Positions 1,209 through 61,679 of a stretch of 64,000 bases of DNA are shown in pieces. This stretch comes from Marsupella aquatica (taxonomy: Eukaryota; Plantae; Marchantiophyta), in contig OZ316895.1 of assembly GCA_973895155.1 (NCBI GenBank), forward strand, positions 11,148,184 to 11,212,183, written 5' to 3'. The first letter of the stretch is position 1. Each line of letters opens with the position of its first letter. Made by a program: the position numbers and the translations under genes. The notes beneath the pieces are model-generated. The model searched no databases and had not been told where the DNA came from. It saw only the letters and a program-made list of their open reading frames with translations.

Positions 1209-1252
1209 CCCTCGCTCTAAGGGCTAAAGTGTTCCTAAGCAGATAGGAAAAG

Positions 1253-1714
1253 ATGGGGCACATAATGGCGCAGATGCAGATCAGAATGTCGTGGACCTGC
1301 TGGATATATACAGGTATGTGGCTGATGTTGTCAAGCTTGCGAAAGGTGGTTTCTTTAGTGGATCTAAAGCTGGAACATCTGCAACGGAGACTAGCTGAGA
1401 AGACAAGCCATGGGATAGATGTGGATGATGGTAAGCAAATGCTGAAACCCGTGACAGACAGCGTAGTGAATTGTTACATTCTCACAAAGTCGAGGAAGCA
1501 GATTGGGCCTTATGAGCTGATGTCCTATAGATGTATAAATAGAGCGTGGCAGGATGCGTTGAAAAATACAGAAGAGTGGACAGCCTTGGAATGGATGAAA
1601 CGTGAAGTATCGAGCAGAAAGTATAAGTCTCGTCAGGAACAGATTCAAAGGTATTGGTTCAATCTTCATGACTTACAAGAAGAGATCCAGAAAAATCCAT
1701 GGAGTAAAGTATAA
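1253..1714 (+). CDS. Antisense ORF of the outer copia, F-box-like
   Basis: The 153-aa ORF fills the space between the PPT and the pol stop and converges on pol. LKPVTDSVVNCYILTK...ELMSYRCINRAWQDAL...EEW resembles the F-box consensus. Confidence 0.45.
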   Translation: MGHIMAQMQIRMSWTCWIYTGMWLMLSSLRKVVSLVDLKLEHLQRRLAEKTSHGIDVDDGKQMLKPVTDSVVNCYILTKSRKQIGPYELMSYRCINRAWQDALKNTEEWTALEWMKREVSSRKYKSRQEQIQRYWFNLHDLQEEIQKNPWSKV

Positions 1715-2034
1715 ACCATTTCAGGATGGCAGCATTGCAGCAGAAATGTGTGGGTGTTCAGAGTGAGATAATACGGTCTTCATGAGATTAGAAAGATCCA
1801 GTACTCCAATGGCTGTTCGATGTCGTTCAAAATGTGGTCGGGACAAGGCCTTGGTAAGTACATCAGCAGGTTGCTGATCGGTTGGAATGTATTTTAGACT
1901 GATCTCCCCCTCAAGGACGCATTCCCGAAAAAAATGATGGTGAACTTCAATGTGCTTAGTGCGTGCATGAAAAATTGGATTACGGGCAAGCTTGATGGCG
2001 CCTTCATTGTCACAGTGAAGAACTGTGTTCGATG

Positions 2035-2337
2035 TGTTGGAATTTGTCAGTCCTGTCCATTGCTGACTCCCTTTGGCTCATTGTCGGGAGTTGTTTTTTT
2101 ACTGGCTGTCTCGGACTCGCTGCAGTAGTCGGTAGGCAGTCTTCCCTAGATCCGTTTTTGGATCAGTCTGACTGCGCCCCACTTAGCACAGTCCTAACCA
2201 TAATTAGTTAGTCTGATCCCGGGATTATCCCTGTCGGCTGCTTGCCGCTGGTGCCTACTTACGCCCTCACTTAAGCTGTATATAATGAGCCTCAGCGCTC
2301 CCGATTAATCAAGTTTCACACATTGAAAACTTCCACA
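2035..2337 (+). repeat. 5' LTR of inner copia
   Basis: TGTTGG...TTCCACA, repeated at 7860-8162 with scattered substitutions. Confidence 0.95.
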
Positions 2338-2349
2338 TGGTATCAGAGC
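2338..2349 (+). promoter_or_regulatory. Primer-binding site, tRNA-iMet type
   Basis: TGGTATCAGAGC immediately follows the 5' LTR. Confidence 0.92.
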
Positions 2350-2400
2350 ACTGCTCCTGGAACCCTCATACTCATACTGATAGAGTAAGCGGTAATCACC

Positions 2401-5400
2401 ATGGCTTCAGGCGACGCAACCAAGCTCTCTTTTTCAGATAGCGACAAGTTAACTGGGGCACACAATTACATTGTGTGGTCCTTTTATGTTGAGCAAATTC
2501 TGAGAGAAAGAGACCTCTGGGAGATTGTCGACCCCACCACGAATACACCTACTCCAACAGCTGGAGGAAGTAACGCTGCCCAGCAGCATACTCCCTCACA
2601 AGCACAAAGCGCAGCATCAGCATCTTCTGAAGGAGGCGATGCTCAGCAGCGACCTGCAGCTACCAGTGGACCCGCAGCAGGTGCATCAAAGAGCCTGGCT
2701 GACGTCCAGAAGCAGGAGGACAGGGTAATCATTATACTTACCAAGACCGTCCATTCTTCTATTATTCCTATCGTTCGAAGGCTTAGTAAGGATCCTGCCA
2801 AGCTGTGGGCTATCCTTAAGCAAAAGTTTGAGTCATCAGCACTCCAATGAAAGCTGGATCTCAAGTTCGCTCTTGCTGAAGCTCGCATGAGTGAGGGGTC
2901 CTCAGTGGAGGCCTACCTCAAGAAGATCGAGTACCATGTAATGCAACTAGGCAGCATAGGAGAGGAAATAGACAACAAGGAACTCATTCATATTGTGCTA
3001 AGAAATTTGCCTGCAAGCTGGTCTGCGTTCAAATCAGTCTATAGTGTCATGTATGCCAAGGATCCTCTAGCCAATTTTTCAGATCTGGAGGAGTATTTAT
3101 AGGCTGAAGAATTCAGTCGTAAACCACACAACGAAGCTGATGAGCAATCTCTGCTTGCCCTCACTTACCCAAAACATGGAGAGGGAAGTAGAGGTCATCG
3201 TGGACGCGGAAGGGGACGTCATGACCGAGGAAGACCTCATAGAGCATATGATGGTGGACCAGATCGACGAAACTGCAACTTCTGTGGGAAGCAAGGCCAC
3301 TGGGAAGCTGACTGCTTCATTAAAACGGCTGACACAGAGATCAAGACGATGTCTGTGTCTCAGTTGAAGGACCTGCACTCGAAAATCAAAGACATCAAAG
3401 CCACTCCTGCATCCAAGGCATACTTTGCTGAGGGGGACATTGGAGACAACAACTCTGAGTTTGGTGAATCCAGTGATCCCAAATCTTCACTCACTATTGA
3501 AGCAATGCTCAGTGAACTTGATGTCAACAGCACTAAAGACAAGACCTGGATTCTTGACAGTGGAGCCTCAGCTCACATTAGTCGAGACAATAGTGGTTTT
3601 GTGAATCTTACTGCATGGAGGTGCCTCTACCTCCACTGTCTTGATGGCCAATGGCTCTAAAATGCCAGTCACAGGATCTGGATCTATTCGAGATGTTTTG
3701 TATGTACCGTCTATTGCTAGAAATTTACTCTCCGTTGGCAAGTTCACTGATCAAGGCCACTCCGTGCTGTTCAATTCATCTAGCTGCTATATATTTGATC
3801 CAAATAGACCATCACAGCCCTACCTCAAGGGCTATAGAGATCCTCGTAGCAAGCTATACAAGGTGAAGTTGCCAGACCATCCTCCCGGGAGAAATCTAGC
3901 TAAGCCTATGCTGCTGCACCCCAAGCTATCTTCTCAATGTCACCTGGCCGAATCACGACTATCTCAAACAGAGCTCTGGCATCAACGTTTGGGACACTCT
4001 AGTCATCAACGTATAAGCTACATGATCCGGAAGGAGTTAATCACGGGAGCTCCATCTTCACTCCCTACCCCTGACCAACTATGCGAGACTTGCATAAAAG
4101 GGAAGCAATCTCGTCATCACATACCTAAGCTTGCAACATCTCGTGCAACTAAAACTCTGGAATTAATCCACTCTGACCTCTGTGGTCCCTTACCGGTTGC
4201 CTCTCTCTGTGGAGCAAGGTACATAATGACATTCACCGATGACTTCTCTCGACACTCATGGGTCTACTTTCCAAGAACCAAAGACGAAGCCTTAAACATA
4301 TTCAAAATCTTCAAGCAGGAAGTCGAGACCTCTCTCAGCGCAAAAATCATGTGTCTACGCAGCAACAGAGGGGGAGAGTATATGTCAGATTTATTCAAAT
4401 CATTTTGTCAGCAGCAAGGCATACACAGGCAGCTCACCATAGCAGGAACCCCTCATCAGAATGGGGTAGCAGAACGTAAAAACCGGACCCTTCTTAATAT
4501 CGTACGTAGCTTGTCAATTGGCTCAAACTTTCCAGCCTACCTATGGGAAGAATTGGTCAACACAGCCAATTACATCAACAATAGATGTAGCACACGAGCC
4601 TTGAATCTCTCTACCCCCACTGAATGTCTGACGGGTATCAAACCAGACGTCAGTCATTTTTGTATTATAGGAAGTACAGCACATGTCCACATACCCAAAG
4701 AAATGCGCAACAAGCTCCAGCCAAAATCAATATGAACTGTGCTTATAGGCTACGACAACAATAGCAAGGCATATCGCTACTTCGGTCCAGAATCACGTAA
4801 AATCCTCATCTCTCGGGCTCGGGGGTCTCACTATATGGGGACCTCCCCATCGCCTGTGACGTTTTTAGGCCTCAGACCCCCTAAAATGTAAGAAAAAAAT
4901 ATTATTTTTTAACCCCTATAAAGTTGGAATATTCTTGGAATATTCTAAAATTTGGATTAAAAAGACCCTTATATTCTTATAAGTCTCAAAATTGAATTTA
5001 AAAGACCCTATTGTTCTTCTACAAAAATTCTTAAGTCTTCCCTTAGAACCAATAAAATGACCCTATCCTTCGTTGCACGTGATATGCCATTTTTGTGGAA
5101 GTGAGACCCCCGAGCTCTCGGGATGTGATCTTTGATGAGTCCACTCAAGGGGATTTCTCAACAACTCAAGTTCATCAACAAGAAAGCATACTCGACTTGT
5201 TCCCGTTTGATGACAACTCTGATAGTGAGCCAGTCACTGCAAATCAGGTCCCAGTTGTTGACTCAACTACTCCTGAAATGGACCTACCAACCTCAGACTC
5301 CATCGACAATTCACCAATGGAGCAGGCAGCTGAGATTCCTGACTCTTCATCACCCTTCACCGATACTCCAACGGCTGTTCCTGAACCACGCCAAGTCCGA

Positions 5401-7167
5401 AGGGCACGTCAACGGGCATCACAACGAGCACTCCAACGACCACGATCACCATCTGGTAGGATGACGTCGCACCCCTATTGGCTTTCTGATTTTACATCAT
5501 ACATCTCATAAACCACCGAGCAGCTCTTCTTGGCCCTACTTGCTGAATCTATCGACAATATCTCAGTCAATGATGCTCTCTCCGACTCGCGTTGGGTCAG
5601 TGCTATGCAACTCAAAATGGATGCACATCGCAAAAATGGCACCTGGGAACTTGTCAATCTCCCTCCCGAAGAGAAAGTGCTTTCAGCCAGGTGGGTGCTT
5701 AGAGAAAAACTTGACCAAGAAGGAAATGTCAAGTTCAAGGCCCGGGTAGTCGCCAGGGGGAATGAGCAACGTGAGGGATTGGACTACAAAGAAACCTTTG
5801 CTCCCGTAGTCAAGTGGTCTACAGTTAGGCTGATAGTAGCACTTGCAGCATCTCTTGGTTGGCCCTTATCACACATGGATATAGTGACGGCATTTCTCAA
5901 CGACACTCTTAGAGAAACAATCTACATGATGCAGCCCCCAGGGTTTCTGACCCCAGGCCAAGAAAAGCTGGTATGTAGACTCAGAAAATCCATTTATGGG
6001 CTCAAGCAAAGCCCTCGAGCATGGTATGAAGAAGTGGACTCCTTCCTTCGCTCAATTGGGTGCAAACGTAGCTCCCTTGATCCCAATCTGTATACTATGC
6101 ATAGGGATGGAAAAATTGCAATCATTCTGCTCTTTGTTGATGATCTTCTACTCACTGGTAGTGGAATAGATCTCATAATTGAACTAAAGGAGCAGCTGAA
6201 AGCAAAGTACGAAATGAAAGATCTAGGAGCAGCAAAGAGATATTTGGGCGTTGATTTTCTTGCTACAGAAACAGGGATACTACTGCATCAAAAGCACTAC
6301 TCAGATCAACTCGTTCTTGACTATGGTATGGATAAATGTAAGCCTGTAGCCACCCCGTTACCAGAAGGCCTTGAGCTCTCTGCGGAGACCAACACTCAAG
6401 ACATCGACTCCATGGATTACAGTCAACTTGTTGGGAAACTCATATATCTCACTAACACACGTCCAGACATTTCATTTTCAGTTGGATTAGTGAGCAGATT
6501 TATGAGTCAACCACAACAAGCTCACCTTGATGCTGCCATGCACATTGTTCGCTATGTCAGTGGAACATCTGATCTGGGAGTATTCTACGCCAAGGATAGT
6601 CCTCTTGACTTAGAAGGATTCACTGATTCTGATTGGGGAAATTCCTGTCCCGACACGAGAAGGTCAACTGGCGGATACATATTCAAGCTCTCCGAAGGTC
6701 CTGTTACCTGGAGTAGCAAAAGGCAACCAACGGTGTCCCGGTCCACCACAGAAGCAAAATACAAAGCACTCTCGGATGGTGCCCAAGAAGGAGTCTATCT
6801 TAAACGGCTACTTGAAGAACTGCAAAGTAATGACTCTCCTCCAAGCAAAGTCCATTGCAAGAACAGCGATGTCACAACAGACCTGGTGAACGCAACTCCG
6901 ACACTTCAAGACTTACACTTAAATTGTGATAACATGAGCGCTGTTAAGCTTGCAAAAAATCCAGTGTTCCATGCCCGAACGAAACATTTGGAAATACATC
7001 ACCACTTTGTAAGAGAACGAGTACTCGAAGGGGAACTTTCTATACATCACGTCAAATCTGAAGATCAAGTAGCTGACATCTTGACAAAGTCACTGTCGAA
7101 GATAAAGTTCATTAGAAACCGAGATGTATTAGGAATGCGATCAGTAACCCAACTGCAGTCAGGATGA
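2401..7167 (+). pseudogene. Copia gag-pol polyprotein, disrupted
   Basis: Gag (NYIVWS, LPASW), protease WILDSGASAH, GAG-pre-integrase WHQRLGH/CETC, integrase HSDLCGP...QNGVAERKNRTL, RT KARVVARG/LFVDD, RNase H FTDSDW/CDN. Stops at 2848, 3100, 4733 and 5508, plus frameshifts and a MITE insertion. Confidence 0.93.
4818..5114. mobile_element. 297-bp MITE with CTCGGGGG termini and 8-bp TSD
   Basis: Perfect 15-bp TIR CTCGGGGGTCTCACT and TSD CTCTCGGG (4810-4817, 5115-5122). Removal restores the copia motif KILISRDVIFDE. Confidence 0.93.
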
Positions 7168-7237
7168 TTGACACCCATAGAGTAAATTCTCCTCATTAAG
7201 GCCACTGACATTGCTCTATTTAGCCTAGTCTGAATTT

Positions 7238-7717
7238 CTAGCGCGCTCTAGCTTGCTCCTTCGCTAGATACAATTCTGCCTCGCTACGAGTCTTGAACAA
7301 CTTATACTTGTTGCCTCGGAAGCCGCTCACTAATGGCTCTACCTCCTCCCAAGTAGTGTAGATCCCCGGGCATCGACCTCATGCCACAGCATAATATCTT
7401 CTGGGCAACTCCTTCGAGAAATCTTGAGCTCCATCTTCTATTGGCAGGCATTCAGGATCTCCCTTGCATACAGGAGCGCTTGGCTCTAATGAATGCATCA
7501 TCTCTCCAGCTGCCTCAATCTCTATCGAAGTGCCAGCAAGTGACACCGATGTCTCTGGATCCCCAACAGGGGGAGTCGTCTCTTCTGCTTGGGGTGTGCT
7601 GCCATGACTACATACCAAATAGTCGTAAGCACTCCGGGAAAGCGCCAATATGAACTCCAACAGGGAAAGAACCAAATGCATCACTGATTCCTTTAACGTT
7701 GCCTCCTCGTGTGCCAT
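7238..7717 (-). pseudogene. Antisense ORF of inner copia with RNase H1 N-terminal / caulimovirus viroplasmin (Cauli_VI) hybrid-binding domain; one premature stop
   Basis: Manual translation past the TGA at 7379-7381 gives RRYYAVA*GRCPGIYTTWEEVEPLVSGFRGNKYKLFKTRSEAELYLAKEQARAR-stop(7238). Confidence 0.82.
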
Positions 7718-7859
7718 GGCCGTCCAAACTCTGGGTGCACTTATGTCATGTATATACTTAGATCAAGTTGACTCATAAGGTTGCGTCACTTCTCTCTCTC
7801 TCTCACAGCTAAATTTATGTCGACCTTGGTGGTCACAGCGAGCCACAGTCGAGAGTGGG

Positions 7860-8162
7860 TGTTGGAATTTGTCAATCCTGTCCGTTGCTGACTCCCTTTG
7901 GCTCATTGTCGGGAATTGTTACTTTACTGGCTGTCTCAGACTCGCTGCAGTAGTTGGTAGGCAGTCTTCCCTAGATCCGTTTCTAGATCAGTCTGACTGC
8001 GCCCCACTTAGCACAGTCCTAACCATAATTAGTTAGTCTGATCCCGGGATTATCCCTATCGGCTGCTTGCTGCTGGCGCCTACTTGCGCCCTCACTTAAG
8101 CTGTATATAATGAGCCTCAGCGCTCCCAATTAATCAAGTTTCACACATTGAAAACTTCCACA
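7860..8162 (+). repeat. 3' LTR of inner copia
   Basis: Copy of 2035-2337, preceded by the PPT and followed by TSD CGATG. Confidence 0.95.
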
Positions 8163-9540
8163 CGATGATGGTAGAGCAGCAAGAATGTGAGAATCTTTAC
8201 ATTGCAGTGAAACTTCAAGATCCACAATGAGTTGAAGTTTGAGAAGTACACGTTGTAGATAGACAGCTTCTTGAGCTCTAGACAATAATGCCATGTACTC
8301 AGATTCCAGACGATAATGCCATGTACTCAGATTCGGTAGAAGATTTGCTGGTAGTAGCTTGGCGTTTGCTGTGCCAAGAAACCGGGCTAGGACCAAGTGT
8401 TAAAATGTAGGCCCCAACAGAGCGGCGAGTCGTAGGGCAGGTAGCCCAATCTGCATCAGTGTAAGCAGAGAGGGTGAGGGGAGTGTTGCGCTGATAAAAA
8501 ATACCATAGTGAGTAGTGTGCCAGAGGTAGCAAAATATGTGCTTCGTTGCTTGCATGTGATCCTTCCGAGGATCTTGCATAAATCGGCTCACAAGACCAA
8601 CTGCAAAGGATAAGTCTGGGCTGGTGTTGGTATTTCCGAATCGGGCCAAGGTCCTTCATGCTAAAATGTTGACGTAGCTCAGCTTGGTGTGAAGCAGTGA
8701 CAACGTCATTACTGCCAGTGATATAAAAATCATCAACATGAGTAAGAAGTATAGTGAGGTCAGTCCCAACACAAATATGGTAAAGATTGTTGTCAAGCAT
8801 TGTCATCACGAAACTGAGTTGTATATGTATTTGACATAACTAAGTTGGATTAGTACATGGTTTCTTTGTCAATTCTATGAGTGTACTGGACAATCATTTT
8901 GTATCAAACTGCTTAATATGCTAAGTTGATGTTGGTTGTATGTGATTCTGATGTAAATTGGATTGCATATCCCATTGACACATATGAGTCATAACTTTTA
9001 CATCAAAACATATCATGGCTTAACTGAACAAATGTCAGTTAGATATCCAGTAGACATTAAAAATTAACAATAGATTGCTACCATATGTCCATGTATTAAA
9101 CATAAAAGATTGCATATAGATGATGTAGTAATATTGACTTAATAATGGGTAAGAAGTAGTTATTGGGTTGTGCATGCAGCTCATTTTACCACACATCTCT
9201 TACTTTACTTTACTATGATTGCAGCACGTCGACCCTTTTTTAATGTTTTCATACTCGAACACATGTTATCAAGGCGGGAGGGCGTTGTCATCACAAAACT
9301 AGTTATAAGTTGATTGTATGTTGAATTGATGTAGAATAGATTGTTGTATTTCTCTACATCAGTTTGATATAGTTTCTTTGGCATTTACATGGCCTTATGC
9401 ATCATAGACCATTCATCCATTCTACATACATTTGATATCATTACCATGAACTTAATATATTAGAGTCTGTTGTAGACAATACATAACATTGGTGTTGTAA
9501 ACTTGTCCATAATATGAATGTTTTGTCACAATTATATGTT

Positions 9541-12487: not shown

Positions 12488-12827
12488 CACTGTGACAGCA
12501 AATAGCAAACAGATTTACTGTTATGAGCAAAAATTTATTGTTACGAGCAAACTAGACAATCTTAAAATGTGTCATTAAAAGTCACAATTTTCAAAATAAT
12601 TTAAAACATGACAATTTTTTGCTAGTGTAAGGCGATACTATTACTAGCTCCGGGCGCTAGCCAAAAATTATCGACTCACAAAAAAAATTTAATATTTTTT
12701 CCCTAAAAAAATTCCAAAAAAAAAATTCCAAAAAAAAATTCCAAAAAGAATTCCAAAAATTTTACCACCCGTTTGCTGTTACGAGTAACTATTTGCTGTT
12801 TGCTGTTTGCTCTTTGCTGTCACGGTG
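12488..12827. mobile_element. 340-bp MITE with CAC...GTG termini
   Basis: 25-bp TIR CAC(T/C)GTGACAGCAAA(T/G)AGCAAACAG. Flanks GTTTT/GTTAT may be a degenerate 5-bp TSD. Confidence 0.75.
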
Positions 12828-12834
12828 GTTATAC

Positions 12835-13177
12835 CCAATCTAACAAAGGAATGCGAAATATGATAAATTTATCGCATGTTTGTTGGAATCCTGAATCCAA
12901 CAGAGAAATGTGAACTGCGATAAAATTATAACATGTTTGCTGCAATCTTGAATCTAATAGAGGAATGCAGACTGCGATAAATTTATTGCATGTTCGTTGG
13001 AATCCTAAATCCAACAGAGGAATGTAGATTGCAAGTAATTTATCGCATGTTTGCTGGAATCCTAAATCCAACAGAGGAATGTAGACTGCAATAAATTTAT
13101 TGCATGTTTTCTGGAATCCTAAATCCAAAAGAGGAATGCGGATTGCGATAAATTTATCGCATGTTCACTGGAATCCT
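12835..13177. repeat. Minisatellite, 57-bp unit, about 6 copies (further degenerate copies at 12380-12482)
   Basis: AATTTATCGCATGTTTGTTGGAATCCTAAATCCAACAGAGGAATG units, which give the 19-aa periodicity of ORF 12829..13128. Confidence 0.85.
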
Positions 13178-16100
13178 CTCACACTAACAATGAATGAATA
13201 GCAAACCTTACATTGATAATACTCAAACCGGAATGCAAGTTCCGATAAATTTATCAGGTTTTTGAGAGAAAGATTCAAATCTCTTTATAGGAATGTAAGA
13301 CTTGATAGGAGTTTGGTATTTTCTTTAAGATAGATGTTATTTGATCTGGCGGTCAAACTAAACTTTTATGGCCATCTCGCTCCTCCTTATATAGGGAATG
13401 CTCAGATAACCATGGTTGCTTTTTTCCACGAACCATGGTTAACTTTGCACTAACCCGGATCAGTGCGTGGTCGACCCTCAATTACGTGGTTGGGACCAAG
13501 TTACTCGCGGTTGGGACTTTGGGCAACTTTTTAAAGTTACAAATGTAAAGCCCAATGCACATATCGCTGCCTGCATTCTCGCAACAATGCAATGTCCAGA
13601 ACTGATGTTTTTTTATTTGGCACCCATTTTATCGGAGTTTGCATTGCCTTAGAAAAAAAACAGAATCGGGCTAAACAAGAAGTGTGTCACACTTCTCGGT
13701 CGGTCCAAAATCGTGTTCACAAGTGAAAAGATCCATTCTTAAATTTAGATCCCTCCCAAATAATATCACTTGCCCTGTCATGACAGCCTGCATATAGGGA
13801 CAAAAACAACAAAACATTGATCAGAATAAGCAAAGATAAAAGTGACAACACAATGTCAAGACACAACTCTCAAGGTTAATTTACCTTGTCCAAGGCAGTC
13901 ACATCTTCTTGGCGCACACGCAAATCTTCCTGCATTTCAACCTCTTCAAGCAAGATCTTCATTTGTTGATTATGTCTCATGACCTGTCCCATGAAATCTA
14001 TCCTATTGCTGTGCCTATACGGAATTTTCATGAGAGCAATATGAAAATGCTCATACATGTCTGTATCGTACTCCAATGGCAACCCACACCGCTTAATGCA
14101 ATCTTTCAAATGAATCATAAAATGAATCTTGACAGTATTGAAACTTGATTCTGCCAGACCATTGTCGTGCGCATACACATCGCTACACAACATACATCGC
14201 TTGTCACATACATCCAAACATAGTCACACTGCCACATCACAAACACAAGAGAATGGAATACAAGTGGAACTCATGTCCACACTTGTCCAAAACCCACAAT
14301 CGCCCCCCTAGCTGGGAGTAAGATCCCCTAACTCTAGCTAGCCATGAGTCCTACAAGGTTGATATATACCTTTTTAGGTATGAAGATCAGGAGGCCGGGT
14401 GCAAGTGAGCCCCATCGATCAGGGGTATTTACAAAAGACAGGAACCAGGAAACAATAACAGGAAACAGTTATTGTTACTAGGAGAATTGAAGGTAAAAAC
14501 CAAAAACATCGGACCAAAAAAAGGATTCCAAACAATCGAAATTAAAGCTCATTTGAGTCATTTTCATTAAAACTGTCTCATTCCAGAAGAAATATCCCGT
14601 CGGGTAGTCCGACCCAAATTTGCAATGATTACCATCGCCCAGTGCTGGTATCAATGAAGCGAATGGAAAGCTGGGAGGGTTTCATCGAAGAAGGAAAAAC
14701 TCAACGAAAATCTATGTAACCTCAATCGAGAAGACAATGAGCGGCTGAAAATGAGGCAATTCAAATCAACAGAGGCATGGTCATACAACAACAAAATCTG
14801 GATCTTGTTGCTAGCTTAAACCTCAAAATCCCGAAATCCATGTTTAATGCCATCGACAGGAAAACCAGACATTGGAGATTGAGCCGCCAAAATTCATTTA
14901 CTTAAAAAATGGGCGAAAACATGTCACTGAGATTACATGGGCGATGGAAATCAATGAGTATAAGTAGCGCCCGACGCTAGCTTAAAACTACAAATCCCGC
15001 CCTTCCATGTGTAACACCATGGAGAGGAAAATGGGTCGATCCAAAAAGAATTTCCTATCAAAATGGGCGAAAACATATTACCCAGATTACCAAATCCTAA
15101 CAAAACATTCAGTACTGAAGAACGGAGATGGAAAGCATCCAGCTTGAGCAGCGCTCAGCGCTAGCTTAAATATATCTGCCTAGGAACCTAATCGCCGTAG
15201 GGTTGCACTCCAAAATAACCTAAGCGACTGCGATTGGAACACCTTTTAGCTTTGTGATTGATAGTCATCATCGACTCCCGCCCTCGCCCGCTTGTAGTTT
15301 CTCTTGAATCCTAAACCCCTGAGCCGAATATAATTGGAAGAGGGAACTCGATGCTCAGCATGAGCTTGGCCAGGGACCGGAAAATTTGCATCAAGGAAGT
15401 CGACGCGCCCCAATCGCTCTTGCACCCGACATTCAATGGGCTGCTGACCATCAGCAGGAACGACTTGATGAAACGAGAACCGATCGTCAAATTTGCGTGG
15501 AGTCTGTTGGTCACCAGTCCACAAAATATTTCTCTCCCCAGGACTAATCGCCTCGTCATAAGGAAGAGAATTACGGTTCCAAAAAGTCAATGTCTCGGTC
15601 TCGGTGTCGACACAAACTGATTCGAAGGAGCTGAAGTGGCTCTCCACCGGTCGAACTCGGGAAGGACTGAAGAAGGCAAGCATCTCGTCCAACAACATTG
15701 GTTCTGTGGTGTGTCCCATGGCTCCCCAAACCCAAGAAACCCCCCTGTGCAGGTTGATTCCCGCAGGTTTCATCCTCGGCGAGGCCGTTTCCGCGGCTTA
15801 GCGGCATGGGACGCTGGTAACTTCCTTCTACTACTACTATTAACATTTTACATACATATACAAGACAGATCCTTCATCGGGTCATGAGATACGTAGCCGG
15901 CCTAATCTAGGCCTTCCCTAGTATACCCCTCCTTCTCTTTAGGTATATTTGGATTCCGCCGCCAGAATGATCCCCAATTGGCTTGGTTAAGCCGCTAAGA
16001 CCTCTCTCATCTTGACACATCCAACTCTCACTCCCTTGCTTACTTCCCTTCTCTCTGTTAGTTGATGTGGGCACTCTTCACACAAGTTGATGCGACACAC

Positions 16101-16625
16101 AAATAGCAAAATGACTCCTTCTGACTGAGTTATACCATGCACTTGCCATACAAATAGTACATCTCATACACAAGTTCTGCGAACTAAGCCGTGAGGCCAA
16201 CTCTATTCAGCTCTTAGGCATGAGGAAACATGAATATACACAAGGGTCACTATATAACTAACCGAGAGCTTCTCTTACTACTTGAACCCAGCCCTACTGG
16301 TGCAACTAAAAACTTGCTAAAGAAGAGGCCCTCGACTCCTCGCTGCCCAGGTACTTATCCTGGAAGTGGATCCGCCAATTCTTAGCAGCGTAAGCAAAAT
16401 CTATCCTACCTGTAATCCACCTAACTATAATCTACCTAAGTACAGCGAGGCAGAAGCACAAGTGTTGCTCCTACCAGTGGATCCGCAATCCCACTAATCT
16501 AAGTATCAGGGCCGTCTCCTGGTCCTGATCCTCAGCCTAAACTTGGAGATCCGAGCCCGCCCTGCCCACTCACGCCTCCTACCTCCACGTCCGCCCTTCC
16601 TAAAAGGAACGGCGCCCTTGCACCA

Positions 16626-17696
16626 TCACAACACCGGTGGTGGATCCTCAATGGACGCCCCCAACGCTTCCCCCGTAGCCACTGCCGTTGGTCCTTCCTC
16701 TGACAGATTACCTACCCCGGACCGAGTCAACTCTTCATTGGCCTGACTGGGTCCACCTTTGGCTTCGGCATCAGTATCGGCCACGGCTTCCCCGGCTATG
16801 GTTTCCTCGGCTGGCTCTAATGGTGGGTTTGCTACCACGGCTTCATCAATAGTTGTCCCGGCCTCGGCCTTGCCATCCCCACCTTCCTTGACAGGTGGAT
16901 CCATTGTCGTGACCATGCCAGAGGTTGGTGTTGGTTTTACCTCCTTGGTCACGACGGCTTGAGGAGCCGTAGTACTCCCTGACCCAGAAGGTTTCTGCTT
17001 CTTCTTCTTCTTTGGTTCGGCAGCTGGCCCCTTCCCCTTGCCACTTACCTCCGGCACCAGGGCGTGTGTCTCGGCTTCTCCTTCGGCCAGTACTACACCA
17101 GGTAACTTGGTTGCCCCAATTGGAGTTGGTCCTGAGGAAGCCAAGCACTTAAATACTGCGGCCTGTTTCTTCAGCCGCTCCATTTGGTTGTTGGCCCGCC
17201 GCTGTAAGTTCTCCATCTTCCGCGTGCTTTCCTCCAACTCCTCCTGCAATTCATCCAGGTCCTTCCTTGCCTCCTTCAGCTCCTTCTGGGCTTCTTCCAA
17301 CTCTTTCTGGGCTTCCTCCAACTCTTTCTTTAAGGTAGCCCTCTCCTCCTGGGTTGCTCTCAGCTCCTTGTCGAGCTCCGCCATGACCTCAGACTCCATT
17401 TTATTCATCTTGGCATAAGTCTGGTCGAGCTGGTCGTCTTTCTCGCGGAGGTCGGCCTTGAAGCTGGCCGTCATGGATGCAAGCTCTTGCCGCAGCACGA
17501 TAATCGCCTGATAGGATTTCCCTAACTCGGCCTCCTTCTGCTCAAGGGCTCCGCGGATATCTTCGAGTTCCCCCTTCAACGCCCTCTCCCTTCTTTGAGT
17601 CTCCGCCATGGCCCGGTTATTGGCTGCTATGTGGGCCTCCTCTGCGTCTCTCAGCTCTTGCTTCCACTTCTCCCTTTCTTTGACCGCCTCGGCCAA
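16626..17696 (-). CDS. Coiled-coil protein with low-complexity tail (C-terminal part of the TG...CA unit ORF)
   Basis: Heptad repeats KELEEAQKELEEAQKELKEARK, a poly-K stretch and an A/E/P/G-rich tail. The tail is conserved in the second copy (63688..63972). Confidence 0.55.
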   Translation of the reverse strand: MAEAVKEREKWKQELRDAEEAHIAANNRAMAETQRRERALKGELEDIRGALEQKEAELGKSYQAIIVLRQELASMTASFKADLREKDDQLDQTYAKMNKMESEVMAELDKELRATQEERATLKKELEEAQKELEEAQKELKEARKDLDELQEELEESTRKMENLQRRANNQMERLKKQAAVFKCLASSGPTPIGATKLPGVVLAEGEAETHALVPEVSGKGKGPAAEPKKKKKQKPSGSGSTTAPQAVVTKEVKPTPTSGMVTTMDPPVKEGGDGKAEAGTTIDEAVVANPPLEPAEETIAGEAVADTDAEAKGGPSQANEELTRSGVGNLSEEGPTAVATGEALGASIEDPPPVL

Positions 17697-22735: not shown

Positions 22736-24172
22736 TCATCGAATGTTTGCACGGTAACCTCCTCCACGAATAGTGGCATACCTCAAAGTATCACGATGTT
22801 GGGCAATGGCAAGGTTGTCAAAAGCCATGGGCATCACTCTCTGAAATACCTGTGCCCTCTCTGAACACACCTTGACCCAAACATCAGGATCATTCACAAC
22901 TGGTGCAGCATCACGACGAATAGATGCTGGCAAATCTAGCTCTCTACCATAGAGCAAAAAATAAGGTGAGAAGGATGCAAGTGATGCTTGCCGACTGAAA
23001 CGGTAGCCCATAGCTAACCAAGGTAGCTAGAGATCCCAATCTCCCAAATGACCAACCTGCAAGCTATACTTACACAATCCTCTCTTCACAGTTTGCACAA
23101 CTCTCTCAGCTAATCCATCTGCCTCTGGATGATCACGAGAGGTAGTACGATGATCAATCAGAGCTTGTTCACACAAACTCTCAAACTCTCCACGGAACTC
23201 AGTTCCCTGATCAGTCAACACCTCAGCTGGTGCTCCAAAATGACTGAGTACACGATCCAAAAATGTAGCAGCAACTCCTCCACTAGCTTTATTGGGCAAC
23301 GCCACTAGCTCAATCCACTTGGAGAAGTGCTCCACCATGACCAAAACATACCGATTATGACGTTGGGTAAGAGGTAATGGACCAGCAAAATCCAAACTCC
23401 AACGATATCCCAAACCCATGATCGGCAACGGGTGCAACTGGGGAGTGGGAGCATTAAATGATGCTCTCACTCTATCACATACCACACACTTAGCTACCAA
23501 CTACTGGACATGAGTGTGCATACCATGCCACCAATACTGTGTCTGTAGCAAGCTATAAGTGCGCTTCACACCAAAGTGCCCCAACTCCTCGTGTGCATGT
23601 CGCACCAAATGTACTCGTTGTGATGGTTTTGGTACCACCAACACACTACCATCATGCAGTACTCTCAAAAGATGGTTTCCCTCCCATCGAAACCTCTTGG
23701 CTCTCTGTAGAACCCTGTCACGTTCTTTGGCATCAACACTGCCAACAATAGAACCACTACGCAGATATTCCAATACTCTCACATCATTGTGAATATCTTG
23801 TTGTCCAAAAGTTACCTCGCCAACATCCACATGTGAAGACTCCTCATCCACTCCATCCAATGAGGTAGAGTCCACAGATCCACTGTATGTTGGCACCCAA
23901 CAAAGAAAGGCAGATGCATGCCATCCTGGCACCATCTCCTTATCTGATTCATCATGCCATCTGGCTCCAATCTTATCCTGCTGACTGGTACATGGATTGC
24001 GGCTTAATCCATCTGCATCCAAGTTCACTTTTCCACGCCTATGCACCACCTGGAAATCATACTCCTGTAACAACAATGCCCATCGTGCAAGCTTCCCTGT
24101 AAGCTTGTCAGACTCCATTAACCACTTAAGAGGCTGATGATCAGTGATCAAGGTGAAGGGGTTACCAAACAA
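22736..24172 (-). pseudogene. Gypsy RNase H end and integrase (HHCC + DDE)
   Basis: ITDHQPLKWL...KLARWALLLQEYDF, HEELGHFG...CVVC, SLDFAGP, TDQGTEF, GLAERVVQ, SPYFLLYGR. In-frame stops are present. Confidence 0.93.
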
Positions 24173-24196
24173 GTAGCAACAAAAGTGTGCAACAGC

Positions 24197-25328
24197 CTAC
24201 ACTGCTGCCAAACACTCTCCCTCATACGAGCTATACTTAGCCTCTGTTGAATTGTTTGATCTACTGGCATAAGCCACAACAAACTCATTCCCCTCATCAT
24301 CCTTCTGAGTCAGCACTGCTCCAAGTCCTACTCCACTCCAATCAGTGTGTAGCTGAAATGGTTTGCCTGAAATGGGTCTTCTCAAAATAGGGGATGATGC
24401 CAACCTTTGCTTCAACTCCTGAAAGGGATGCTCCTGGTCATCACCCCAAATCCATTCCTGATCCAACTTAGTGAGTATGGTCAAAGGTTTAGCAAGCTGG
24501 CTAAATCCTTTAACATACATCCTGTAGTAGCTCGCCAATCCCAAGAATGCACGAACTCTACTCACATCAGTAGGACAAAGAATCTGTATAATGGCCTCCA
24601 CTTTAGTCTGCTGTACACCCAATCCCCCTGGGTATATAGTGTGGCCCAAATACTCAATCTGGTCTTGGAAGAACTTACACTTGCTAGGATGGAGCTTCAA
24701 CCCATGTGCTCTCAATCTCTCCAACACAATCTGCGAGTGTTGCTGATGTTCTTCCACGGTAGAAGAATAGACCAAAATATCATCAATATAACATCTGACA
24801 AAATCCAAACCTGCAAGGATTCGATCCATGACTCTCTGGAACTCAGTTGGTGCATTCTTCAACCCAAATGGTAAGAATAACCACTGATACAAACGATCTT
24901 TGCCAAAAGAATCAATGCCCCTGAATGTTGTCTTGGACCTGTCAGCATGCCTAATTGAAAGCTGATGGTACCCTGCCCTCAGATCCAATGAACTGAAAAC
25001 CTTTGCATGCCCCACAACATCAAAGATCTCCTCAAGTGTGGGCATGGCATATCTATCAGATTTTGTCTAGCGATTAATGGGTCTGTAATCACCACACATG
25101 CGCCTATCTATGTAATTGCCATGCACATCCTTCTTGGCTGGCATCAATCACTATGGCAGATGCATACTCCCCATATGAAATCTCCACCAATCCAGCCTCC
25201 AACAAATCTTGAATCAGAATCAGAGCTCTCTCCATGTCATTGTAACGGTATGGCCTACGAAAGATTAGCGCATCACTAGCCAATTCAATCTGAATACCAG
25301 GACCCTTTAATGTCCCCAAATCCTTCAT
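24197..25328 (-). pseudogene. Gypsy reverse transcriptase / RNase H
   Basis: FSSLDLRAGYHQ, PFGLKNAP, CYIDDILVYS, RAFLGLASYYR, TDWSGVGLGAVL, YSSYEGECLA. Confidence 0.95.
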
Positions 25329-25493: not shown

Positions 25494-26762
25494 TTAAGCA
25501 GTCCCTTCCTGCTCAACAATCTGTCCAGCCTTGGCCAATCTTGCCATAGGTCCATAGGTCTGCTCGCCCCCAGTTGTGGTCAGTACTATCTCAGTGGACC
25601 GCAAGCTCACCAAGGGACAATCAGTAATTCTAGTAGAGCGCATCTTCAACTGTTTAGTTACTCCCAAGCTGATAATCCAAGTCAAACAATTCAGATCCAT
25701 TGCTTGACCAAGAACTTGGCGCCGCAAACCCTCTGACACAGAGGCAACTGCAGTGGTGCCAGTCAAAAATCCCATAGCACGCTCTCTCTCATCAGCAGTA
25801 GGCTCCACTAACTGCTGGAGAGCTATGTCCCACACAAGTCCAGGGCCACCTGCTCTGAATGCATATGAAGCAGAGTGGCTTACAAGACTGGGTAATGCAC
25901 AACGTGGGCGCCCAACTACATTGACCATTGCCAATGGAGGTCTATCAGGTTGGGTGACACCCTATGCATAACGCCCTGGATCCAAAATATCATCCACCAC
26001 TAAGGTTGGTGAGCGTGGAATGTTGTCAAATGCGCGCTTCAACACCTCACATGGGATCAAATTGGTCCACCACAAGCGTGGACGATGTGCACGAGAACCA
26101 ACATGTGCAGCATCCAATAACACAGTAGGTCCAATCCAAGACCTCACCTGGTGAACACTGGTAACAATCTGACTATGATCATCACCTAACAATGGCACAT
26201 TCTCCAAATTGTATGCTGGAGACTGTGTTTGATGTAACTGGAGATGACGCAGCACCCGTAACATCTCCCAAAACAATGCAGAGCGTGGATCATGAAGTCC
26301 ATGCCCAACGCTAGCTCTAGATTGGCCCTGACATGGCCAACCAGCAATCACCAAATCAATGGAGCCAACACGATGCAGATGATCTGCCCCCAGCAATGAA
26401 ATATCAACAGGTAGTGCATGCTGATAACCACGAACAACATCTACTGGCAGCAACTGTGGATATCTATCCACCAACATAGCCACATGTCGCAATGAGACCC
26501 TCCGTGCTATCTCATCTGTCTCCACATACAAATAACGATGCACAAGAATTCCTGCCTGAAGAACAGCAGCCAATCCAGTGCTAATCCCACCAAAAAGATC
26601 CAACAAACAAATACCCTCCAGTGGATACTGCCAAGCAATAGGAGTGGTATCCAATGGTGAAAGAGTCATAGGTCCATCTGCAAGAGACTGCTCTGCTCCT
26701 GATTGTGGTGTAAAAGCATGACGCCATGCATCATGTACCAATTGTGCTGCTGCCTGTGGCAA
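25494..26762 (-). pseudogene. C5-cytosine DNA methyltransferase (DNMT3-like) domain embedded in gypsy pol
   Basis: Motif I LDLFGGI, II YVETD, IV AGWPCQGQS, VI LENVP, VIII AHRPRLWWTN, then IX/X ERERAMGF...RRQVLGQAMD. A single in-frame TAG lies at 25962. Confidence 0.92.
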
Positions 26763-26995
26763 GGCCTATGCAGTGCCCCACACTGGTGGCACAACACTGC
26801 CAATAGGTAATCCTCACATGATGTGCTCCTCATGAGACCGGGCATGAGACTCCTCCAATGGTGGAACATCTGTTGCATGCGCATTACCCTCAATCAAATC
26901 ATCAGGTCCAGCAATTAGACCACTGAATGCTGCCAAAGACAATGGTGTGGATTTAGGGCCTCCCACAGGTCCACTAAATCTCATTGGAAATTTGC

Positions 26996-30110: not shown

Positions 30111-30184
30111 GATGTTACGATCATGTTTCAAAATCAGGACTCTCCTCCAAAACATATTGTACAATCACTCAAAAACCCCAAATA

Positions 30185-30512
30185 AATTAAAGTTGGGTCG
30201 AACTTATTCCGACCCTCTGACAACAATATATCTTAAAATGATTGAATTGACTAACCATTTACAAGTCGGGTCGGAATTAGTTCGACCCTCCTCCAACAAT
30301 ATGTCTTTAAATGATTTAATTTACTAAACATTTACAAGTTGGGTCGGAATTAGTTCGACCCTCCAACAAGATGTCTTTAAATGATTTAATTTACTAAACG
30401 TTTACAAGTTGGGTCAGAATTAGTTCGACCCTCCTCCAACAAGATGTCTTTAAATGATTTAATTTACTAAACATTTACAAGTTGGGTCGGAATTAGTTCG
30501 ACCCTGCTCCAA
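30185..30512. repeat. Tandem repeat, 70-73-bp unit, about 5 copies, each with a GGGTCG(G)A...TCGACCC hairpin
   Basis: ATGTCTTTAAATGATTTAATTTACTAAACATTTACAAGTTGGGTCGGAATTAGTTCGACCC at 30301, 30371 and 30444, with degenerate copies upstream. Confidence 0.85.
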
Positions 30513-32456
30513 CTATTGGGTTGAAATTATCTCAAAACTATTTGTAGAACTATCTTGCTTGTGCTTGTATATACCAAATTAAAACGCTAGTCAAGATAAC
30601 ATAGTCAAGTCGGCACGAAATAATTCCGACCCACTTCTAGAAACTATGTTAGTAATCACACAAAGGGGTACAATAAGTTCTACACATGCTAGAGTGTGGA
30701 TAAAGGTCTAGATGGGTAGAATATATGATCTAGAGCCTAATGTGTAAATATTAATCTAGGTTTGGCTCAAAGGTATTACATTTGATTCAGATAAAATTGA
30801 GCTACTACTTCTAAGATAAATAAATAAAACCACTAACCTGCTCCACAAAATATATTTGCCCACCCTTGTACAAGCTGAATGGGTACCTAGCATGCCAGCA
30901 TTGTAACTCTTAGCACCATAGTGCTCACCAGTGCCCTTACTAAACCATGCATTCAACCATGTGGACCTAAACAAGGCACTGACTCGAACAGAGGAGAGTC
31001 AGTGACCGTACCAAGCATTATCTAAATGATAATGAACCAAAAAATGGATTGTGGGAGATCTATACTCACTTTTGAGAGGCAAAAAGCCAGCACATTACCC
31101 AACACACAAGTGGACACCAACAGATCAGGCACGGGTGGATCACGCACACACCCAGCACACAAGGTGGATAACGGAGAGATCAGCCGATCAGTCACAAGTG
31201 ATAGGTGAGTTGCGAGCGCACACCGCTGACAGCTTGCCAGTTGAAAGTTTAAATCGGACCTGAGATCAAGCGTGTCAGTGGTAGGTGAGTTGCGCGTTGT
31301 CGTACATCCATAGGTGAGTTGTGAGTGGTTAGATGCAGCGTTAGCGCGCATTGATGGCTTTGTACGTACATCTTCAATCCTTCCATTGCCTCCTCGCTCG
31401 AAGGGGGTATAGGAAGGCAGGCCTTGTGCTTGAGGCCTCATTTCCTTGCCTCCCTTTTCCCTCCTCTTTTTCCTCCTCTCTGGGCTCCTCTCTTGTCTCC
31501 TCACTCCCTGCCTCACTCTTGCCTCGCTCTTGGGCTCTTGTTTCCGCCTCGCTCTTGGGCTTTTGTTTTTGCCTCGCTCTTGGGCGTTTGTTTGCGCCTT
31601 GCTCCCTTCCTTTTTGGGTCGCTCACCCAGTCATTGTTTGCCTGGCCTGTTGGTTCCCTCTTAGTGCCCTCTTGTAGCCTGTGGCCTTCTCCTTTGCTGC
31701 CATGTGTCATTTTAAATCTCACCCGTCCGTTACAATGTCTACTTCCTCTAGTTCTAGAGCTTCCACCACCTCTGCCAATTCTGGAGAGTCATTGAACTTC
31801 AATTATAACTCTGTGTATAATATGACCCCGAAGACCCAGATGTCCAAAAATTGGTTAACAATGCGTTGGAGGCGTCAAAGAAAGCCCAATTAACTTTTCC
31901 ACGTAAGGCACCACCTACTTCAACTTCTTGCCTCGCCCTTAGGGCGAGGCAACTTTACTTTAATTTGGATTCCTCAATAGGAAAGTTTTCTATATTACTT
32001 TTGCAACCGCCTCGCCCCGAGGTTGAGGCGACATCTACTTCATTCTAGATTTCTTGTTGCTCCAAGGGCGTAATGGACGTTGTCTCTTACTTTAATCAAG
32101 GATCTTTAGCTATATTCCATTTTGTGCCTCGCTCTCAGGGCGAGCCAATCTCTATTTCATTATGGAAACTTTAGTTATATTCTATTTGTTGCCTCGCCCC
32201 AAGGGTGAGGCGATGTCGTATGCATTCCTAATATTTGATTGTTTGGATGGGGTGGCCGGGCTAATATCACCAATAGCAAAGAAGCTTTTGCAAAATATTC
32301 CATATTCAATGTTAAAAATATGATGTTGACCATTTTGTTTTCAATGTTTCTTATCAGGAAAAAATCTTGAGAAGCCGGAGTTAAATATAGGATATCAAGG
32401 ACTTTGTTTTCCCTGGCCAAGATACTCCATGATTTAGATGGGCACTAGAAGTTGGG

Positions 32457-36483: not shown

Positions 36484-36827
36484 CCTTTTCTTTGGTTCTT
36501 GGTATTTTAATGACAATCTAAGCTTTATCTTTGTAATAATATACTTTTTTACAGACCAAAGTTGCGTCGTAGAATCTCCTTCCTCAAATGATTTTAATGG
36601 CATTCCCTCGGAAAGCGTTGCTGTGGAGGAAGGGTTTGACCCAGGTATACCTTGGATCTAAAAAATAGCAAATTTTGAATGTAATTGTTTTTCTAGGAGG
36701 GTCGCCCCAGGGTCGTTCCTCTCTCCTTCAAATGTTATAACAAAGTTTGTTTGATTTCAAATTTTGAGATCTTTCCTTGATAGTAATTGTTTAAACTTTG
36801 AGTCACATTGACTAAGGGATTATTTTA

Positions 36828-37880
36828 ATGTTTCCAGACTTCACTCCAATACTACACTCTCCGATCCAGCGAAAGCTCTTGGTTCTTGATCTTAACAAGA
36901 TTTGTTGGGATTGCATTAAGACCAGAAGCTCAGGACCATGGCAAAATCAGACAAGTTTACGTGGTGTGCACTGGGGGAGACGTGGAGGGTTTAATTTCAT
37001 GTATGTGGAGCGCCCCTACCTCCATGAATTTCTATATGCAACTTTCATGGCTTTTGACATCGCAATTTGGACCTGTGCGAGGAGGCCAAAAACAATGGAC
37101 TTAATGGAGATGATTTTCACTAAGGAGGAGCGACAGAAGTTAAAGTTTGTCTTTACTCAAGAAGATACCTTTGATAGTTGCATCCAAAGGCCAAATATAA
37201 CAGACGGGAAGGCCAACTTACTTTTGCAGAATCTGCAAACCATTTGGGACCGTTTTCCAGAAAAATATGATGCTTCTAATACAGTTCTTATTGATGATTC
37301 TCCATTGAAGGCATTTTTGAATTATGACGTGAATGGATTGTTTCCAAATCCATTTACTCACACAGCTTCGAATGACACTTTTTTGCCCGAGATATTATGG
37401 CTGTATCTTTGCAAATTGAGAAAGGCCTACTGTGTTCAACATTATATCACTGTCAACAATCCAAAGTGGTCTGTTTTCAATTTATTAACAAGCAAGGAGG
37501 ATCATGCTGCCATCTATGCTCGTTTGGAGGTGAAGTGGCCGGGGAGATTGTTGTTGTATCCATAAGGAGTTTGGAACCATCTTGATGTGACTCCTGAAGA
37601 GATTCCTTGGGACGGAAAGGAGGAGGTGCAGCATTACCCACCACTAGAGATGTGGACCACGGATGAGATCAAAGAAACTGCAAATGCTATACTTGGAGAC
37701 AACTATTCTGGTCCTCATAGACAAAATAGAAGGCATTTTATTTGGAAAGTTCTAAGAACTAGGGATCTCACCAATAAGTTTAAGAACCATCATGCGAGAG
37801 ATACTTGCAATCGTGACATCCGCTATGATAAATCAGGAAGCAGACTTTCTTGTTTAAATGAGTTTTGTCTTGATCATTAG
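36828..37880 (+). pseudogene. NIF / FCP1-SCP-like HAD phosphatase domain protein
   Basis: KLLVLDLN, ERPYLHEFL...FDIAIWTC, NTVLIDDSPLKAFLN. A stop at 37563-37565 is followed by an in-frame ORF at 37587..37880. Confidence 0.78.
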
Positions 37881-46541: not shown

Positions 46542-47012
46542 ATGGAGGATTTGAAAAATCTTTTCAATGAACGTCACGACATTGGTCCTCGACATATGTT
46601 TGAGGATATCCATTGTTGTTTTATTGATGGAGAAAAGATCTCTAAAACAAGACTCAATATTCTTTCAAAAAGGCTTCTACACTATGGTGGGACAAAATCC
46701 TCCAAGATTAGGATAGAAACCACACATGTGGTTGCAGCAAGCTGGAAAGATTGCCATTGTCGATTCTTTGGCAAGTTGGATGTACTTGAGAAAGTAGCTG
46801 AGAAAATCCCTATTGTTTCATATGATTGGATATCAGAATGCTTGAAGCATTCTGATATAGTAGACGTGTTTGGCTTCTTGCTGCACCCTAGTTGTGTACA
46901 GATTCAAAGAGATTGGGAAAAAGAGAAGGCTGAAATGGACAAGGATGCATGGAAGACACTGGTAGCTCGTAGACTTGCAGCAAGAGAATTTGTGCCAAAG
47001 AGATATTTGAAG
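46542..47012 (+). CDS. BRCT-domain exon of cargo gene
   Basis: FEDIHCCFI...LLHYGG...TTHVVA...IVSYDWISECLK, ending at the donor AAG|GTATG (47013). Confidence 0.8.
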
Positions 47013-47401
47013 GTATGAAGAATTTAGAGGGAGTGCACCTATTTTAGAGCAAAAACTCTAAAATAATGATAGGGCACACATCAAATAGTGTAAGCATACC
47101 ATTAATGACTATCACAATTTTTGAACTATTTGGAATTGAATGGATTAAAATTTGTTTTAAATTGAATTGGAAACATGGAAATTGTTTGGAATTGATTTGG
47201 ATTATATTGGATATATTAGAATTTTGTTTGGAATTGATTTGGATTGTATTGAATTTATTAGAATTTTGTCTGGAATTGATCTGGATTGTATTGGATATAT
47301 TTGAATTTTGTTTGGAATTTATTTGGATTGTATGTATTGGATTTTATTTGTTACTTATGATTTGAAATGGAATGCACATGCATGTTTGTATGTGATTGCA
47401 G

Positions 47402-61057: not shown

Positions 61058-61679
61058 AATCTCAAAATCCGGAGATTCAGGTTCAATGGGATCCTGTCAC
61101 CCATGATTCAGCATGGTCTGGACACTCTCTGAACCAGCCGACCTTCTCTTTTCTGGAAAACAAAAGAGAACCAAAAACCTCAGAAAACGAGAATTTGCAA
61201 AGAAAGGACTAAACATTAGAAGTCGATGGAGAGTTAGGACGATGAGCACACTTACTTCTCCTGCCAAAAACATGACACTAGAAGAAAACAGGGCCCTTTA
61301 TGACCAATCACCCAATGACGGAGATGAATAAATGACCAAAATTTTTAATGACACAAAAAGAATGACAGGGGAATGACTGTCCACAATGACCAATGGACTG
61401 AAATGACAAAAAGTTAACTTTTGCGTCATTTTGTATAATGTCTATAATGACTGATGTGACCAAAATGACCCAATTTCCCTAAATGGTGAATTTAGACACA
61501 TGTCTTAAATGACGCAATTAATAACAACAATGATAAATCAGTGTTTAACAACATTATAGTCACTCTGGACAATGATTGAAATGACCAAAAATCTATTTGA
61601 GTCATTTTGGACAACGGTGATAAATGACAAAAAATGTATTACCGTCATTTTAACCAACAGGGTTAAATGACAAAATATA

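Follow-up and report, generated by a model that had tools for sequence, protein, structure and literature searches.

Antisense open reading frames (ORFs) lying between pol and the 3' LTR are already known, mostly in gypsy elements, and form an established class of unknown function whose products have mostly lacked interpretable domains (PMC7264820). In the window analysed here, a stretch of 64,000 nucleotides from the liverwort Marsupella aquatica (contig OZ316895.1), we describe an ORF that shares with the aORF-3R/eORF-3'R genes (Grande gene23, RIRE2, Retand TRP28, PvRetro13) its position, its orientation and its spread across copies and related elements, together with a likely promoter of its own. 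Unlike that class, its host is a Ty1/copia element, the ORF is short (~150 codons) and it carries a PF01693 domain. Position and conservation, two of the properties that mark aORF-3R genes, are both found here, with the genomic context taken from the window, from one contig of a sequencing run (X4) and from the database protein P0271. We found no published ORF with PF01693, or with a hybrid-binding domain (HBD), in copia or any other LTR element in a literature search conducted mostly outside subscription journals. PF01693 is absent from the eORF domains in Additional file 4 of PMC6317226 and from the other supplements searched, the accessible text of that survey contains neither 'liverwort' nor 'Marchantia', and it is stated to have counted only ORFs of at least 250 codons. 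The Retand domains given in the accessible part of PMC11963269 include TRP28, SMC and others with PF01693 not among them, and for the terms used, no mention of an HBD in an LTR element turned up in the accessible portions of PMC4408406 and PMC6338049.

The domain itself is found in several other systems. The HBD of eukaryotic RNase H1 (human 3BSU, yeast 1QHK) is alike in sequence and fold and, for nine of ten family rows each, at W43 and K59, whereas in the family described below the HBD is C-terminal behind a hydrophobic helix, no catalytic domain is present, and the K60 position is S, A or L. In caulimovirus P6/TAV the same domain likewise belongs to the accessory protein of a reverse-transcribing element and stands behind an N-terminal region and a variable stretch, but P6 is ~420-530 aa long, sense-oriented and encoded by a non-integrating virus, and outside the 44-residue domain we found no homology to it. 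The antisense product is neither an RNase H1 enzyme nor a P6. The archaeal-type extra RNase H (aRH) of Tat/Ogre/Retand gypsy elements is likewise an RNase H-related module gained by plant LTR elements; however, aRH is catalytic and fused in pol, whereas the liverwort domain is predicted to bind only and is encoded by a separate antisense gene, in an element whose own RNase H keeps its acidic motif residues. Finally, PF01693 is reported in a fungal Helitron gene, Pleurotus capE (PMC4289320). Such genes and the HBD-only clusters of Basidiomycota resemble the present case in that they pair no nuclease with PF01693 and lie within or close to mobile DNA, and differ in being sporadic captures linked to a DNA transposon and, as non-family proteins, in giving no score with the helix profile described below.

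The features of the element and of its antisense ORF are as follows.

2030..2034, plus strand: left target-site duplication (TSD), CGATG
2035..2337, plus strand: 5' LTR, 303 bp, TG..CA
2338..2350, plus strand: primer-binding site (PBS), TGGTATCAGAGC, which we take to be of the tRNA-Met type
2389..3660, plus strand: gag and zinc knuckle with the start of the protease, in three pieces split by stops (PF14223, PF13961, PF00098, PF22936; several below cut-off)
3605..4735, plus strand: end of the protease, gag-pre-integrase and integrase core, in another frame (PF13976, PF00665, PF25597)
5512..7167, plus strand: reverse transcriptase and RNase H (PF07727, E 1e-72)
7238..7717, minus strand: antisense accessory ORF, 159 codons, with one internal stop in the window copy
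7268..7399, minus strand: RNase H1 hybrid-binding domain (HBD, PF01693), residues 107-150
7379..7381, minus strand: premature stop of the window copy, where nearly every sister contig has a sense codon
7400..7627, minus strand: acidic, variable, low-confidence linker
7628..7684, minus strand: hydrophobic N-terminal helix, residues 12-30 (hydropathy, and leave-one-out profile E 1.8e-7)
7751..7756, minus strand: TATA-like motif 39 bp upstream of the ORF's ATG (weak, consensus match only)
7847..7859, plus strand: purine-rich tract before the 3' LTR, likely the polypurine tract
7860..8162, plus strand: 3' LTR, 303 bp, TG..CA
8163..8167, plus strand: right TSD, CGATG
1247-1714 (plus strand), 1721-2077 (minus strand) and 8133-8839 (minus strand): pieces of an older minus-strand copia and its opposite-strand ORF

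The host element is a Ty1/copia retrotransposon, as is evident from its domain order (gag-PR-INT-RT, the last being RVT_2, with RNase H (RH) at the C-terminus) together with its TG..CA LTRs, TSD and PBS. The two LTRs differ at 14 of 303 positions (K2P ~0.048), and gag-pol is interrupted by stops and frame changes, so that the window copy is dead. Its closest RT-RH relatives are Logan proteins with 69-75% identity and the closest named pol relatives are proteins of Calypogeia fissa (65-66%); the copia lineage with the antisense HBD gene likely lives in leafy liverworts. An insertion of ~20-25 aa before the CDN motif of the RNase H (window ~6790-6920, plus strand) is common to the 16 closest aligned pol relatives and shorter or absent in four more distant ones, and is a possible marker of the lineage. 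Since close relatives also keep the D-E-D-D motif positions of their RNase H, we rejected the idea that the HBD stands in for a dead element RNase H.

Several other features of the window were observed. The host element is nested in an older minus-strand copia whose RT/RH pieces lie on both sides of it. This older element has an opposite-strand ORF of its own, of 155 codons and ending 7 bp from its pol stop, which has a mildly hydrophobic N-terminal stretch, no Pfam match and a place outside the HBD family, and which may represent another antisense accessory gene of liverwort copia, unrelated to the first. Elsewhere, a C-5 cytosine DNA methylase-like frame (25494-26765, minus strand; PF00145, E 1.5e-9) lies upstream of gypsy-type RT-RH-INT pieces at 23027-25066, which suggests a gypsy element with a methylase domain on board. 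Adjoining ORFs with a BRCT domain and an NSD-type PHD finger (46482-48352, plus strand) are probably DNA transposon cargo. The window also holds a NIF phosphatase-like ORF (36816-37565), tandem repeat arrays at 12780-13177, 30148-30579 and 61595-62101 (periods ~57, 73 and 83 bp) and one long repeat dispersed in two copies (~15700-16790 and ~62770-63850).

The antisense ORF occupies the 692-bp interval between pol and the 3' LTR. Read on the minus strand it runs from an ATG at 7717 through ...PRRYYAVA to a stop at 7379-7381, continues as GRCPGIYTTWEEVEPLVSGFRGNKYKLFKTRSEAELYL and terminates at 7240-7238, tail to tail with pol and 70 bp away from its stop. An earlier note made from the sequence had proposed that the ORF hides an RNase H1 HBD behind a mutated codon, that it begins about 140 bp from the 3' LTR antisense to pol, and that it has a hydrophobic N-terminal helix. 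All three proposals hold. With X placed at the stop, hmmscan matched the ORF to PF01693 (Cauli_VI) at E 3.1e-18 (66.2 bits against a cut-off of 21), spanning model positions 1-44 of 44; the 46 residues past the internal stop alone gave E 3e-14, and the part before it gave no Pfam match. The match is far beyond chance. The ATG lies on the minus strand, 142 bp from the 3' LTR, and residues 12-30 have a 19-residue Kyte-Doolittle mean of 1.6. The TATA-like motif is the sole promoter hint and sits in the internal region, outside the LTR. No second copy of 7161-7860 was found within the 64-kb window.

Sister copies were sought in sequencing runs, four of which (X1-X4, with two organism labels and from two studies) cover the ORF region. 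The sense codon predicted for 7379-7381 was present in all four. By depth at 7381 it accounted for 315/315 in X1 (among the matches listed), 240/314 in X2, 106/106 in X3 and 72/72 in X4, with the sense form throughout the contigs of X1, X3 and X4 and both sense and stop forms in X2. We therefore rejected programmed read-through of the internal stop. Only X2 has a contig identical to the window, over 7311-7459, although the LTRs of the window copy have diverged by ~5%, and X2 may be the run from which the window derives. The insertion of the window copy may be polymorphic among samples, or its contigs may have been filtered from X1, X3 and X4. In X3 four overlapping contigs cover the ORF without a gap, and none of the 25 listed variants makes a stop. 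A 1-base deletion at 7496 occurs in one contig each of X3 and X4, one contig per run passes into unrelated sequence beyond 7304, and some run contigs have indels in the pol region. Contig depths, which are not copy number, tentatively suggest a handful of copies and not hundreds; since the family seems to be low-copy in X1-X4 there is no sign of its special success.

The listed variants divide unevenly along the ORF, with synonymous to non-synonymous counts of 6/4 in the HBD, 1/12 in the helix and linker and 1/1 in the tail (Fisher p 0.019, HBD against helix and linker). At three of the four non-synonymous HBD changes it is the window that differs from all or nearly all contigs. The synonymous excess in the HBD is marginal when all its listed variants are counted (p 0.055), and with the three window-specific changes dropped, 6 of 7 are synonymous (p 0.005). 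This split, which comes from the listed part of the differences and is not a dN/dS, supports constraint on the HBD.

A diverged sister subfamily provides the most telling DNA evidence, its similarity to the window being confined to pol and HBD. In X4 a contig of 1519 nt matches the end of pol (6948-7126, 33 differences) and the HBD (7287-7366, 15 differences) at ~81% each. The spacing from the end of pol to the HBD is 162 nt in this contig and 161 in the window, and the spacer itself has no match at 80%. The same joint of pol and HBD is also present in X2 and X3. By hand reading, and assuming that both ends come from one copy, the ends of the diverged contigs flanking the HBD are in frame and free of stops; 5 of the 10 residues at the C-terminal end are identical to those of the window ORF.

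In order to place the product among known proteins we used word-based homologue searches, which returned 1 and 4 family members, and an exhaustive search, which returned at least 9. The latter gave 2637 matches at E<=0.001, and we inspected the best 150. Among these, P0001, P0138, P0175, P0177, P0242, P0247 and P0271 match nearly the whole query in one stretch, and P0151 and P0201 match the linker and HBD only. Eight of these nine are Logan proteins and P0177 is the Calypogeia fissa protein CAM6101554.1. The full-length rows are 34-43% identical to P0001. Four family proteins start with MA-x-E in register with the window ATG, and two further ones, as well as a longer cluster member of P0001, have the aligned Met behind a short extension. 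Over the 28 pairs that the eight full-length rows make, identity averages 34% for the helix, 17% for the linker and 57% for the HBD. All eight linkers are acidic (net charge -2 to -13), and the 19-residue hydropathy of the helix is 1.6-2.1 in seven and 1.09 in P0138. A leave-one-out helix profile built without the window row ranked the window ORF first of 2026 six-frame peptides (E 1.8e-7; next peptide 0.057), and the profile including that row matched, among 286 proteins, family members only. The family ORFs end ~10 residues past the HBD, and in the members with Pfam domains given, PF01693 was the only one, with no catalytic RNase H domain (PF00075). An Atlas search with the whole protein returned Basidiomycota HBD-only clusters, and one with the helix returned nothing usable. 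In a tree of HBDs (49 columns, bootstrap not settled) the ten family HBDs form one side of a branch supported at 98/95, the other side holding 53 others, namely the 50 best by score plus named homologue hits; on these 49 columns, with bootstrap not settled, it singles out no donor among host RNH1, fungi and bacteria.

Linkage to copia among the nine database members comes from P0271 and, by hint only, from P0151. P0271 extends 75 residues beyond the usual end of the family, and its last 34 residues, read on the opposite strand, fit the C-termini of copia RNase H (best 21/34; shuffled patterns at most 15). A fit of at least 16/34 was found in 18 of 120 pol proteins and in none of 160 non-pol proteins, and 94 of the 120 best matches fall within the last 70 residues of the pol proteins. 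In a tblastn search the tail aligned with each of the window's two copia RH ends, on their antisense strand (E 0.009 and 0.033). The tail thus reads as an antisense copia RH end, which puts a member only 34% identical to the window ORF tail to tail with copia pol. For P0151, the longest contig is 2904 both for it and for the RT protein P0004, which is the only hint of linkage; the contig of P0177 differs in length from those that encode the C. fissa pol proteins. Twelve distant copia loci from JGI metagenomes (25-43% RH identity, several short-flanked) gave no HBD or family match beyond weak hits of P0201 to locus L008 (E 0.003, in the linker) and of P0247 to L012 (E 0.14). The tail-to-tail position beside copia pol is nonetheless seen in three settings: the window, the diverged subfamily of X4 and P0271. 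The earlier note's view of a copia-encoded accessory protein is well grounded, given that sister copies have the ORF intact at the stop and that a diverged protein family retains it, and on this comparative evidence the ORF is very probably a maintained protein-coding gene and not a chance capture.

The intact relative P0001 was used to assess the structure of the product. Its best PDB sequence matches are the human and yeast RNase H1 HBDs, and in its AlphaFold model a helix (residues 3-40) is joined to the HBD by a linker modelled with low confidence. The modelled HBD fits onto 3BSU, the human domain with RNA/DNA, at an rmsd of 1.2-1.3 A over 45-47 columns and has the same three-strand, two-helix fold. 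The human HBD strongly prefers RNA:DNA hybrids over dsRNA. In human RNase H1, W43A is reported to abolish hybrid binding, and K59A and K60A to reduce it roughly tenfold (PMC6846478). Of the ten HBD rows, nine retain the equivalent of W43 and nine have K or R at K59, whilst the K60 equivalent is S, A or L in all ten family HBDs and K in none; in other HBDs S is commonest at this position (53 of 131 readable, of 152). The family HBD probably binds RNA:DNA hybrids as the human domain does, and because the product has no nuclease domain it is expected to bind without cutting. A hydrophobic helix with basic and aromatic residues behind it points to a signal anchor that would leave the HBD facing the cytosol; the helix is borderline for a membrane span and may instead serve oligomerisation or self-association.

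What such a protein would do for the element is a matter of weighing several readings. Tentatively, we favour a tethered, non-catalytic hybrid binder that may shield RNA:cDNA intermediates from host RNase H; the shielding of replication intermediates had been put forward in the earlier note and is plausible. The antisense ORF would be transcribed and translated from its own promoter, the helix would anchor the product in the ER or nuclear envelope with the HBD in the cytosol or nucleoplasm, and the HBD would bind the RNA:cDNA intermediates of the element, so that, for hybrids leaving the particle or exposed in it, the protein served as a dominant decoy against host RNase H and thereby raised the yield of cDNA. 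In yeast, loss of cellular RNase H is reported to raise Ty1 cDNA-associated hybrids and mobility, and cleavage of hybrids inside or outside Ty1 particles has been proposed (PMC4214602, PMC7524711); because of this effect of RNase H loss, a binding-only HBD would make a natural decoy. Such a shield could, however, get in the way of the element's own RNase H as well, there is no known packaging signal, the K60 equivalent is replaced in 10/10 HBDs, the helix is borderline and some sister contigs are disrupted. A rather unlikely, fuller version is a membrane-anchored hybrid receptor that would combine counter-defence against host RNase H with docking of reverse transcription intermediates on the ER or nuclear envelope, perhaps on plasmodesmal ER as an analogue of a movement protein. 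The main rival to shielding draws on the same domain and anchor evidence and holds that the protein reads or tethers R-loops, so that hybrid-containing cDNA or particles would be kept at the nuclear envelope until imported, or integration would be guided to R-loop-rich chromatin. Known antisense ORF products, Grande gene23 among them, localise to the nucleus, and a part in import has been suggested (PMC7264820), but the HBD protein is a separate polypeptide in which we saw no integrase-binding feature or link, and a single copy gives no measure of insertion preference; we consider this rival unlikely.

The earlier note had also suggested, by analogy with CaMV P6, that the product suppresses RNA silencing, which as a dsRNA-binding protein it would do by coating sense/antisense duplexes or siRNA precursors of the element. 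The P6 motif is indeed reported to bind hybrids and dsRNA in vitro (PMC5902531), an antisense unit would create dsRNA with the genomic RNA (PMC7264820), and the K60 position is unlike that of the human protein, whose preference for hybrids over dsRNA points the other way. The analogy is not supported, since the dsR domain of P6 is reported to be dispensable for suppression of RNAi, which maps to a C-terminal part that is absent here (PMC5902531), and for the former reason we rate silencing suppression as improbable. The dsR domain of P6 is also reported to bind TOR, eL18 and eL13 (PMC5902531), and the liverwort protein might in the same way engage TOR or 60S eL13/eL18 and so boost translation of the element or damp autophagy. 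Caulimovirid TAV proteins, by organism name, fill 13 of the 19 top BFVD rows, and P6, too, bears a region for self-association at its N-terminus; against this, phage and giant-virus HBD proteins score alike in BFVD, only the HBD truly matches there, since longer alignments have an rmsd of 5-35 A, and the lack of any detected sequence link to P6 outside the domain tells in the same direction. It is established that copia lacks a polycistronic message in need of reinitiation, and a host-protein binder of this type is quite improbable. It is highly improbable that the ORF is a passenger, a captured RNase H1 or transposon fragment that is neutral or useful only as antisense RNA. The window copy carries a break, disruptions occur in some sisters too, most linker variants are non-synonymous, and HBD-only genes are common in Basidiomycota and reported to ride in fungal Helitrons (PMC4289320). 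Yet open frames with an aligned start, and with helix and HBD 34-43% identical around a linker of only 17%, cannot persist neutrally, and in the diverged subfamily DNA similarity is limited to pol and the HBD.

Since the structure of this type of domain with its ligand has been solved and residues that knock out binding are known, the family makes binding, protection from RNase H, localisation and retromobility directly testable. Short antisense genes of this kind escape cut-offs of 250 codons and surveys that lack liverworts. If the fuller receptor version is true, no antisense accessory gene of a retrotransposon before this one will have had a biochemical ligand that can be assigned, and the gene would have converged on the dsR domain of caulimovirus P6. 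If the shielding role is true, reverse-transcribing elements would have a third way of recruiting RNase H modules, besides aRH and P6. It would also mean that a retrotransposon has armed itself against restriction by host RNase H, which has so far been inferred from yeast host mutants.
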